A DNA stretch of 64,000 nucleotides from Escherichia coli (lineage in GTDB: Bacteria > Pseudomonadota > Gammaproteobacteria > Enterobacterales > Enterobacteriaceae): NCBI RefSeq assembly GCF_003018255.1, contig NZ_CP027440.1; one strand, 5' to 3'. Below, in pieces: positions 51,895 to 54,819 of this stretch. Below the pieces are notes generated by a model that worked only from the letters and a program-made list of their open reading frames with translations, made no database searches and had not been told where the DNA came from. Every line of letters begins with the position of its first letter. Positions within the stretch are counted from its first letter, which is position 1. Both the position numbers and the translations under genes were made by a program.

Positions 51895-52028
51895 ATATAC
51901 TGCTTCTTCGTTTATCGTTGGGGTTTTACGGCTTTGCCGTTTAATATAGTGTGCTATTGTAGCTGGTCTTAACCGGGAGCAGGAACAGAGAATCTCCCGT
52001 ATTACATTTTGAGGAAAGTCAAAACGTC

Positions 52029-52766
52029 ATGACGCGCATGAAATATCTGGTGGCAGCCGCCACACTAAGCCTGTTTTTGGCGGGTTGCTCGGGGTCAAAG
52101 GAAGAAGTACCTGATAATCCGCCAAATGAAATTTACGCGACTGCACAACAAAAGCTGCAGGACGGTAACTGGAGACAGGCAATAACGCAACTGGAAGCGT
52201 TAGATAATCGCTATCCGTTTGGTCCGTATTCGCAGCAGGTGCAGCTGGATCTCATCTACGCCTACTATAAAAACGCCGATTTGCCGTTAGCACAGGCTGC
52301 CATCGATCGTTTTATTCGCCTTAACCCGACCCATCCGAATATCGATTATGTCATGTACATGCGTGGCCTGACCAATATGGCGCTGGATGACAGTGCGCTG
52401 CAAGGGTTCTTTGGCGTTGACCGTAGCGATCGCGATCCTCAACATGCACGAGCTGCGTTTAGTGACTTTTCCAAACTGGTGCGCGGCTATCCGAACAGTC
52501 AGTACACCACCGATGCCACCAAACGTCTGGTATTCCTGAAAGATCGTCTGGCGAAATATGAATACTCCGTTGCCGAGTACTATACAGAACGTGGTGCATG
52601 GGTTGCCGTCGTTAACCGCGTAGAAGGCATGTTGCGCGACTACCCGGATACCCAGGCTACGCGTGATGCGCTGCCGCTGATGGAAAATGCATACCGTCAG
52701 ATGCAGTTGAATGCGCAAGCTGAAAAAGTAGCGAAAATCATCGCCGCAAACAGCAGCAATACATAA
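52029..52766 (+). CDS. bamD: Outer membrane protein assembly factor BamD
   Basis: 245-aa TPR lipoprotein with lipobox LAGCSG. Confidence 0.95.
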
Positions 52767-52789
52767 CAGAAACCTGAAACACAAAACGG

Positions 52790-52803
52790 CAGCCCTTGAG
52801 CTG
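52790..52803 (+). repeat. Left copy of target-site direct repeat CAGCCCTTGAGCTG flanking IS4
   Basis: Identical 14-mer at 54231-54244 directly abutting the other IS terminus. Confidence 0.7.
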
Positions 52804-54230
52804 TAATGCCGATCAGTTAAGGATCAGTTGACCGATCCAGTGGCTGTGTAAGAATCCGGAAACGCTCACTTGTTTCCGGATTTTTTTATGCACATTGGAC
52901 AGGCTCTTGATCTGGTATCCCGTTACGATTCTCTGCGTAACCCACTGACTTCTCTGGGGGATTACCTCGACCCCGAACTCATCTCTCGTTGCCTTGCCGA
53001 ATCAGGTACTGTAACGCTACGCAAGCGCCGTCTTCCCCTCGAAATGATGGTCTGGTGTATTGTTGGCATGGCGCTTGAGCGTAAAGAACCTCTTCACCAG
53101 ATTGTGAATCGCCTGGACATCATGCTGCCGGGCAATCGCCCCTTCGTTGCCCCCCAGTGCCGTTATTCAGGCCCGCCAGCGCCTGGGAAGTGAGGCTGTC
53201 CGCCGCGTGTTCACGAAAACAGCGCAGCTCTGGCATAACGCCACGCCGCATCCGCACTGGTGCGGCCTGACCCTGCTGGCCATCGATGGTGTGTTCTGGC
53301 GCACACCGGATACACCAGAGAACGATGCAGCCTTCCCCCGCCAGACACATGCCGGGAACCCGGCGCTCTACCCGCAGGTCAAAATGGTCTGCCAGATGGA
53401 ACTGACCAGCCATCTGCTGACGGCTGCAGCCTTCGGCACGATGAAGAACAGCGAAAATGAGCTTGCTGAGCAACTTATAGAACAAACCGGCGATAACACT
53501 CTGACGTTAATGGATAAAGGTTATTACTCACTGGGACTGTTAAATGCCTGGAGCCTGGCGGGAGAACACCGCCACTGGATGATACCTCTCAGAAAGGGAG
53601 CGCAATATGAAGAGATCAGAAAACTGGGTAAAGGCGATCATCTGGTGAAGCTGAAAACCAGCCCGCAGGCACGAAAAAAGTGGCCGGGACTGGGAAATGA
53701 AGTGACAGCCCGCCTGCTGACCGTGACGCGCAAAGGAAAAGTCTGCCATCTGCTGACGTCGATGACGGACGCCATGCGCTTCCCCGGAGGAGAAATGGCG
53801 GATCTGTACAGTCATCGCTGGGAAATCGAACTGGGATACAGGGAGATAAAACAGACGATGCAACTGAGCAGGCTGACGCTGAGAAGTAAAAAGCCGGAGC
53901 TTGTGGAGCAAGAGCTGTGGGGTGTCTTACTGGCTTATAATCTGGTGAGATATCAGATGATTAAAATGGCGGAACATCTGAAAGGTTACTGGCCGAATCA
54001 ACTGAGTTTCTCAGAATCATGCGGAATGGTGATGAGAATGCTGATGACATTGCAGGGCGCTTCACCGGGACGTATACCGGAGCTGATGCGCGATCTTGCA
54101 AGTATGGGACAACTTGTGAAATTACCGACAAGAAGGGAAAGGGCCTTCCCGAGAGTGGTAAAGGAGAGGCCCTGGAAATACCCCACAGCCCCGAAAAAGA
54201 GCCAGTCAGTTGCTTAACTGATCGGCATTA
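52804..54230 (+). mobile_element. IS4-family insertion sequence (IS4-like, 1427 bp) with 18-bp perfect terminal inverted repeats
   Basis: IRL TAATGCCGATCAGTTAAG at 52804-52821 equals the reverse complement of IRR at 54213-54230; single internal DDE transposase gene of about 442 codons; flanking 14-bp direct repeat; size fits IS4 (about 1426 bp). Confidence 0.85.
52888..54217 (+). pseudogene. insG: IS4 transposase, reading frame split by +1 frameshift in a C6 run (53150-53155)
   Basis: ORF 52888..53193 (MHIGQALDLVSRYDSL...) and ORF 53147..54217 overlap in different frames; joined they give about 442 aa with the IS4-family YREIK motif ([13 protein letters not shown]). Confidence 0.75.
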
Positions 54231-54244
54231 CAGCCCTTGAGCTG
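54231..54244 (+). repeat. Right copy of target-site direct repeat CAGCCCTTGAGCTG flanking IS4
   Basis: Identical to 52790-52803. Confidence 0.7.
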
Positions 54245-54423
54245 CCGTTTTTTTATTCTGTTAGTTGTGAAACTGAAGCGATTTAGTCACTATCGATCTC
54301 ATCAAATATGGCTCGCTTTGAGATATTCCTCAAGTAAAAAAACACCTCTTCCTGCGATTTCTCACAAAAAAGATTCGTTGACAAAAAGTGACAAAATTAT
54401 GAGATTTCCATCACACATTTTGA

Positions 54424-54819
<396 letters not shown>

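Follow-up and report, generated by a model that had tools for sequence, protein, structure and literature searches.

A conserved hairpin and T-run at the transposase start of IS4-subgroup elements: a probable intrinsic terminator with a promoter-like site in its 5' arm

That the left ends of insertion sequences can guard against outside transcription is a general principle already known from IS200, IS10 and IS50. In IS10 and IS50 the native transcript starts between the two arms and only external transcripts fold; translation is blocked by a structure that has no U-tract and covers the start codon. This 'fold-back' protection against read-through transcripts was reportedly described by Davis, Simons and Kleckner in 1985 and by Krebs and Reznikoff in 1986. 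The promoters of both elements are under Dam control (PMC4265352). In IS200, a bidirectional Rho-independent terminator of the left end guards a transposase gene of low expression against transcription arriving from outside; it covers nucleotides 12–34, with the tnpA start at about nucleotide 40 (Beuzon, Marques and Casadesus, 1999, as reported in PMC4513863).

The window considered here, a stretch of 64,000 nucleotides of Escherichia coli DNA, contains a copy of IS4 with a hairpin and a U-tract in its left end. Judging from its sequence and from that of its relatives, this structure is probably a conserved RNA-level intrinsic terminator, an insulator belonging to the left end of IS4-subgroup elements. 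Its nearest precedent, presumably in function and not by homology, is IS200. In both cases a stem-loop terminator, predicted in the case of IS4, lies in the left end, 5' of the transposase coding region, and the element's own start site would fall at or beyond that terminator, as predicted for IS4 from the geometry of its −35 and −10 hexamers. By contrast, IS200 is an unrelated Y1/HUH element, with a second hairpin that sequesters the Shine-Dalgarno (SD) sequence and with an antisense sRNA, while the single hairpin of IS4 abuts the start codon, holds a GGA triplet and carries a putative −10 in its 5' arm; furthermore, the function of the IS200 structure has been shown by experiment whereas that of IS4 is one that we infer. 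IS10 and IS50, which belong to the IS4 family, share with IS4 an inverted repeat in the left end, weak promoters overlapping Dam sites and, if the start predicted for IS4 is right, a transcription start between the arms. IS4 differs from them by its full terminator anatomy and by an AUG that is inconsistently covered. Ordinary intrinsic terminators, such as that of bamD, resemble the IS4 hairpin in their GC-rich stem and short loop, in a U-tract on the 3' side and a partial A-tract on the 5' side, and in their stability, with folding energies of −18.8 (IS4) and −18.9 kcal/mol (bamD); unlike these, the IS4 hairpin stands 5' of a start codon with zero spacer, overlaps a promoter-like site and is mobile. 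The IS4 module appears to join the ideas embodied in IS200 and in IS10/IS50, and to add to them a −10 nested in a terminator arm.

The IS4 copy downstream of bamD

The element is 1427 bp long and occupies positions 52804–54230 on the + strand, as delimited by alignment to the IS4 of NC_000913. It differs from this K-12 copy (1426 bp) by six changes in 1427 positions, namely one additional C, three base substitutions and, within the right inverted repeat, two changes, and its first 345 bp, hairpin included, are identical to those of K-12 IS4. K-12 carries only this one IS4, on the minus strand at 4502090–4503515. A size of about 1.4 kb, 18-bp inverted repeats beginning with TAATGCC and a single DDE transposase ORF, frameshifted in the present case, place it in IS4. 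The left terminal repeat, TAATGCCGATCAGTTAAG (52804–52821, + strand), identified by a repeat search and by the K-12 alignment, is matched at 18 of 18 positions by the right one (54213–54230, − strand), against 16 of 18 in K-12. On either side stands a copy of a 14-bp target-site duplication, CAGCCCTTGAGCTG, at 52790–52803 and 54231–54244, the two direct repeats being spaced 1441 apart; this length is one above the 10–13 bp range published for IS4 (PMC2266710, Table 1).

The insertion split the terminator of the upstream, co-directional gene, bamD (52029–52766, + strand). At the empty site, as found in another E. coli, the sequence is AAAACGGCAGCCCTTGAGCTGCCGTTTTTTT, an intact bamD intrinsic terminator with a ΔG of −18.9 kcal/mol. 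In the window, what precedes the element is AAAACGG (52783–52789) and the left duplication, which corresponds to the loop of the old terminator together with the upper part of its stem; the 3' half, CCGTTTTTTT (54245–54254), now follows the right duplication, on the far side of the element. At the left junction the bamD terminator is down to a 5-bp stem devoid of a U-tract, and transcripts of bamD must therefore now enter the left end of the insertion sequence.

The transposase gene, insG (52888–54217, + strand), starts at the ATG at 52888, that is, at nucleotide 85 of the element, which is the annotated insG start in K-12 IS4. It is a pseudogene here: six C at 53150–53155, where K-12 has five, create a +1 frameshift that splits the ORF, and RefSeq labels this insG copy as 'frameshifted'. 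Of 5426 complete E. coli genomes, 337 (6%) share the bamD::IS4 junction, and at least 25 of these 337 are 100% identical across a region of 1631 nt, frameshift included; 2014C-3338 and APEC O2-211 are examples of strains that carry it. This is an inherited, dead copy and, because its transposase gene is frameshifted, the only likely present effect of the hairpin is to end bamD transcripts. The split terminator and the frameshift had both been overlooked in the original prediction, as had the conserved promoter-like site with its −10 in the 5' arm.

The hairpin and its conservation among IS4 relatives

Across the left end of the element the window reads ...TGTGTAAGAATCCGGAAACGCTCACTTGTTTCCGGATTTTTTTATGCAC.... 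The core of the 5' arm, ATCCGGAAAC (52854–52863), makes ten perfect pairs, five of them G:C, with the core of the 3' arm, GTTTCCGGAT (52872–52881), around an 8-nt loop, GCTCACTT (52864–52871), in which RNAfold closes two extra pairs to leave a loop of 6 nt. The minimum free energy (MFE) structure adds a C:G pair, so that six of 11 Watson-Crick pairs are G:C (52853–52863/52872–52882), and further A:U and G:U pairs lengthen the stem outward to 15 pairs (52850–52885). Thus extended, the 5' arm covers 52850–52863, including A-rich positions 52850–52853, and the 3' arm covers 52872–52885, with an SD-like GGA at 52878–52880. Seven T (52881–52887), a U-tract in RNA, lead exactly to the start codon. 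The hairpin occupies nucleotides 47–82 of the 1427 of the element, on the sense strand, between the left terminus and the transposase ATG. All of these features, the 10-bp stem, the T-run and the ATG at 52888, had been correctly located by the original prediction, which also stated that seven T follow the stem; the seven are indeed there, but the last base of the 3' arm was counted among them and six lie beyond the stem.

The 46-nt segment carrying the hairpin folds with a ΔG of −18.8 kcal/mol, against −5.8 ± 2.5 kcal/mol for its dinucleotide shuffles (z −5.25, 0 of 200 reaching the observed value). When the leading 120 nt of IS4 are folded, a stable structure is likewise predicted, with −46 kcal/mol and a z of −5.41, in line with what had been anticipated. 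The expectation from Markov resamples is 0.4 perfect 10-bp stems with a loop of 3–10 nt per 64 kb, and the window has 11 distinct ones, among which the IS4 hairpin has the best T-run; chance is excluded as its origin. The other perfect 10-bp stems of the window are mostly intergenic and resemble host terminators. The IS4 hairpin displays the two elements of an intrinsic terminator, a GC-rich stem-loop and an adjoining 3' U-tract. A scan for consensus terminators failed to call the left-end site, likely owing to a greedy stem extension that swallowed the T-run, and a scan of Rfam 15 over 52600–53100, on both strands and with E values up to 10, returned no match. A covariance model (CM) of the motif finds it at one place only, in the window and in each locus of the relatives; a second match in one of these loci was discarded as a scaffolding artefact, made of a duplicated block joined by an N.

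Relatives of IS4 were gathered both by tblastn of InsG against plasmids and by a profile-guided scan in which each species was represented by one genome (49–92% identity). This yielded 80 loci with a transposase identity of 35–96%, from which 69 distinct upstream sequences were retained, those of loci with at least 70 nt 5' of the start codon. A hairpin and T-run directly precede the start codon in 68 of these 69 sequences, the structure always ending at that codon, in agreement with the original prediction. The taxa covered are Enterobacterales, Vibrio, Pseudomonas, Alteromonadales, Aeromonas, Acinetobacter and several MAGs. The exception is a Ralstonia element without the motif at this place, the IRL of which forms another hairpin, with T5. 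The hairpins of the relatives have a median of 14 ungapped pairs, a loop of 5 nt and an MFE of −18.5 kcal/mol; their loops range from 3 to 12 nt, and 1–8 nt separate the end of the stem from the start codon. In its majority form the motif consists of AAAATCCG, five variable pairs, the loop, the complement of these, CGGATTTTTTT and ATG. The lower stem, AAAATCCG/CGGATTTT (ATCCG/CGGAT), is nearly invariant, which implies a sequence-specific role beyond pairing, for example as a −10, an SD or a protein site. A minority form reads ATAAAGGCyt...arGCCTTTT(CTT)-ATG/TTG, and unrelated stems are found at the same place in A. indicus, in V. tapetis and in an E. coli plasmid element.

Pairing is maintained in these relatives through compensatory changes. 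In a MAFFT alignment of 67 sequences, 87.3% of the cells are paired, against 72.2% after shuffling, a fraction lowered by the minority 'AAAGGC...GCCTTT' class, which is shifted by one column; covariation scores 0.441, compared with 0.188 when shuffled, with 0 of 500 shuffles reaching the observed value and controls with slid partners at 0.147 or less. The corresponding values in a CM alignment of 58 distinct rows, biased to the structure by construction and restricted to the majority class, are 93.1% against 78.5% of cells paired, and a score of 0.431 against 0.144, with slid-partner controls at 0.082 or less. In this CM alignment four of the upper five pairs have each undergone 24–32 double changes, and the fifth 10. 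Across the relatives G:U pairs number 47–49, against a single A:C mismatch. On the sense side, 6–7 T are present within 8 nt past the G/C core in 64 of 66 relatives, while the antisense side mostly has 4–5 in 8. The G:U bias, the sense-side T-run and the covarying upper pairs together point to a structure of the sense-strand RNA, not to a site in duplex DNA.

A promoter-like site in the 5' arm and the proposed mechanism

Upstream of the hairpin lies a promoter-like −35 hexamer, TTGACC (52828–52833, + strand), a consensus match that is found as TTGAnn, equally spaced, in most relatives. It is followed by an extended −10, TGtAAGAAT (52847–52855, + strand, with the hexamer at 52850–52855), the last bases of which form the foot of the hairpin's 5' arm. 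GATC sites flank the −35 at 52822–52825 and 52834–52837, and a third GATC is at 52811–52814. The combination TTGACC-16-TGtAAGAAT is the sole promoter-like site of the + strand within 52000–54600. On this single sequence the promoter scan gave two sites where 2.5 were expected; a consensus match of this kind is by itself at chance level, and it is the conserved position that lends support to the promoter. Indeed, TTGAnn-16-nAnAAT, with its 16-nt spacer, is the best promoter match in 57 of 65 relatives, the −10 adjoins the G/C core of the stem in at least 41, and the minority class has TATAAA at the −10 position. Since the −10 is part of the foot of the 5' arm, initiation by the element itself should take place within the hairpin, and the resulting transcript should escape folding. 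When the start is modelled 7 nt past the −10, 1–5 nt of the 5' arm remain in 52 of 65 relatives. For IS4 this would place the transcription start at about 52862 ± 2, in the upper 5' arm, and the native leader so modelled (52862–52923) has a ΔG of −7.3 kcal/mol and is less structured than its shuffles (z +1.35). The published TSS dataset examined has no entry for an insG start site.

A mechanism can be proposed on this basis. Transcripts coming from outside, here from bamD, would carry both arms and fold the 15-pair hairpin, terminating in the U-tract ahead of AUG synthesis; in the read-through that escapes termination, positions −12 to −1 and the weak GGA would be held in the stem. Polymerases arriving from outside would, before they terminate, also pass over the promoter and occlude it. 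Transcripts from the weak native promoter, by contrast, would start at about 52862, within the 5' arm, keep 1–5 nt of that arm and form no hairpin, yielding an mRNA with an unstructured, U-rich leader of about 26 nt and a weakly translated start. The block to bamD read-through suggested by the original prediction is supported by the conservation of the hairpin, its compensatory changes, its G:U bias and its T-run, and stands as a prediction. Were the mechanism to hold, a single 45-nt module would end the host transcript, insulate the transposase and let through only promoter-initiated transcripts; this would be a promoter-gated terminator, of a kind so far undescribed as an RNA family.

Masking of the translation start, which had been suggested alongside termination, receives a mixed answer from the modelled probabilities of being unpaired. 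Over positions −12 to −1, GGA included, the mean is 0.21 in read-through transcripts against 0.57 in the modelled native ones, so that this segment is paired as expected; for the AUG itself the values are 0.45 and 0.53, and masking is inconsistent. In IS4 an extended fold pairs the AUG with 52835–52849, a feature limited to close relatives. It had been said that the hairpin leaves no room for an SD sequence: there is in fact a weak SD-like GGA 7 nt 5' of the ATG, but it is buried in the 3' arm. Likewise, the alternative TTG start, thought to lie inside the stem, has its first two bases in the loop and its last one as the first base of the 3' arm (52870–52872). This TTG, the start retained by PGAP/RefSeq, was rejected: in 26 of 66 relatives an in-frame stop lies at most 36 nt upstream, 40 of the 66 have no upstream in-frame start, and a T-run 4–9 long breaks the frame. 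The ATG at 52888 is favoured as the insG start over the TTG of RefSeq. Also set aside was a complementarity between 52835–52849 and 53566–53580 (15 nt, 93%), restricted to IS4 and to relatives with 87–96% identity and at shuffle level elsewhere; it is treated as lineage-specific or due to chance.

The partial masking just described could be read as the main function. The hairpin would then be a translational operator of the native mRNA, which would start upstream of it; the stem would bury the GGA and the U-rich landing site, and termination would be incidental. The sole SD-like triplet does lie in the 3' arm, positions −12 to −1 are mostly paired when both arms are present, the extended fold of IS4 engages the AUG with 52835–52849, and SD-sequestering structures occur in IS10 and IS50. 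They have also been described in IS200 (PMC4513863). We nevertheless consider such an operator unlikely: a GC stem followed by U6–U7 is the anatomy of a terminator, at which the native transcript would mostly end before the AUG; the conserved −10 in the 5' arm makes an upstream start unlikely from that promoter, and the left end has no second promoter-like site on the + strand; masking of the AUG is not conserved, the extended pairing being confined to close relatives.

An action of the palindrome as DNA, either as a subterminal site for the transposase or a host protein, or as a cruciform marking the left end, would fit the near-invariant ATCCG/CGGAT of the lower stem, which resembles a protein half-site, the presence of the feature at one end only, and the existence of a second, GATC-containing palindrome around the −35. 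It is made quite improbable by the freedom with which the upper five pairs vary while staying complementary, by loops that range from 3 to 12 nt, and by the asymmetry between 47–49 G:U pairs and one A:C, which is meaningful only in sense-strand RNA; it also leaves unexplained the asymmetric T-run and a hairpin set exactly against the start codon. DDE transposases of the IS4 family, for their part, bind the terminal inverted repeats as duplex DNA. One may lastly imagine a functionless relic, left by a terminator-inserting ancestor whose left end took in a host terminator or one half of it, and the hairpin does share with the insertion targets of these elements the succession of an A-run, a GC stem and a T-run. 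Such a capture could account for the origin of the structure, but not for its maintenance; neutral pairing would not survive 24–32 double substitutions at each of four pairs, and 10 at the fifth, down to 35% identity, and the position is fixed relative to both the start codon and the promoter-like site. That the hairpin is only a relic is very hard to believe.

Terminator-like target sites and the meaning of the module

A consensus AAA-N20-TTT is said to have been proposed for IS4 targets by Mayaux et al. in 1984. The survey 'IS4 family goes genomic' reports a strong target-arm specificity for the IS4 subgroup, and mentions neither hairpin, nor terminator, nor Dam. A search of the literature brought up no earlier account of a hairpin in IS4 or of insertion targeted to terminators, although a mention is possible in early IS4 papers, such as the 1981 sequence paper.

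From the duplications flanking IS4-subgroup elements, 32 distinct empty target sites were rebuilt. About 28 of the 32 are palindromes made of an A-run, a GC stem, a loop, the returning stem and a T-run, with a ΔG of −11 to −24 kcal/mol, and the 10–14 bp that are duplicated correspond to the top of the stem and the loop of the target palindrome. At 26 of 29 sites at least one flank has the end of a gene no more than 130 nt away: 12 sites are between convergent genes, six have a gene that reads into the left end alone and eight a gene that reads into the right end alone, a distribution that therefore reveals no bias of orientation. Splitting terminators is habitual for IS4-subgroup elements, and most insertions face read-through. 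Insertion into terminator-like palindromes explains why a terminator of their own would be needed. We put forward, as a tentative idea, that the IS4 subgroup might be composed of 'terminator-swapping' elements, which would destroy the tip of a host terminator and carry a replacement in their left end, with the 5' arm doubling as a −10.

IS4, a classic but little-studied element, would gain in this way a concrete and testable control mechanism. The module is compact, bringing together terminator, promoter and start codon in about 60 nt; it is present in many Gammaproteobacteria and beyond, and absent from Rfam. It points to a natural design for expression cassettes that would be insulated and self-starting. 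For the elements themselves, it would explain how those that land in terminators avoid being activated by the gene that they interrupt, and it may explain why such insertions are tolerated, as exemplified by the bamD–raiA copy found in 6% of complete E. coli genomes.

Target sites of the subgroup

The insertion point of IS4-subgroup elements is the tip of a terminator-like palindrome. About 28 of the 32 empty sites reconstructed from the window and from the loci carrying relatives (L004-L091) are of this kind, with an A-run, a GC stem, a loop, the stem again and a T-run. A gene ends at most 130 nt away at 26 of 29 target sites, on the left only in 6 cases, on the right only in 8 and on both sides in 12, and these counts reveal no orientation bias in the insertions of the subgroup. 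The target of the window's IS4 copy (52804-54230, plus strand, between bamD and raiA) was the bamD terminator, now split between 52783-52803 and 54231-54254. Its duplicated target (52790-52803 and 54231-54244) is 14 bp long, whereas published duplications of the subgroup measure 10-13 bp (PMC2266710, Table 1), so that it exceeds their upper limit by 1 bp.

The two ends of the element

The right terminal inverted repeat (54213-54230, CTGATCGGCATTA) equals the left one at 18 of 18 positions, whereas that of K-12 IS4 (CTGACTGGCATTA) matches the left repeat at 16 of 18. Across the right junction (54222-54254), fold prediction pairs the terminal CGGCA of the element with a host UGCCG located 5' of the U7 inherited from the old bamD terminator. 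The predicted outcome, shortly 3' of the transposase stop codon, is a weak hybrid hairpin followed by a U-tract, which could act as a terminator of transposase transcripts.

At the other extremity, the first 34 nt of IS4 hold three GATC (Dam) sites (52811-52837), two of them forming a palindrome, GGATCAGTTGACCGATCC, around the candidate -35 hexamer of the transposase gene insG (TTGACC, 52828-52833). The same region carries at least one GATC in 62 of 66 relatives, and two to four in most; elements of Pseudomonas, Acinetobacter, Halomonas and one Desulfobulbaceae MAG have none or one. IS10 and IS50 are known to be under Dam control (PMC4265352), and the presence of these sites at the left end suggests similar control of the IS4 promoter by Dam or SeqA.

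The promoter spacer (52835-52849) and a segment in the middle of insG (53566-53580) form a 15-nt inverted repeat with 93% complementarity. It is limited to IS4 and to relatives at 87-96% identity; in other relatives, complementarity between these two segments stays at the level of shuffled sequences. The start-codon hairpin (52850-52885) is absent from a single relative, on a Ralstonia solanacearum megaplasmid (L010, 257-300), where the left inverted repeat pairs with an adjacent inverted copy of itself (AATGCCGTTCAG and CTGAACGGCATT) ahead of a T5, making a terminator-like structure at the extreme terminus of the element. At a Vibrio locus (L031), the left-end motif occurs twice (558-603 and 807-852) together with the gene's initial 150 nt, with an N between the copies; this is a scaffolding artefact of a draft assembly, and we rejected it as biology.

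Reading frame and inheritance of the bamD::IS4 insertion

RefSeq/PGAP starts the insG pseudogene at TTG 52870, within the hairpin; ATG 52888 is the start favoured both by the annotation of K-12 and by conservation among relatives. The frame is broken further on: a C6 run (53150-53155), where K-12 IS4 has C5, creates a +1 frameshift that divides insG into ORFs 52888-53193 and 53147-54217. Of 5426 complete E. coli genomes, 337 carry this same insertion (junction, 52745-52865), and at least 25 of these match at 100% across a 1631-nt region that takes in the frameshift. The IS4 copy between bamD and raiA is dead, fixed and inherited.
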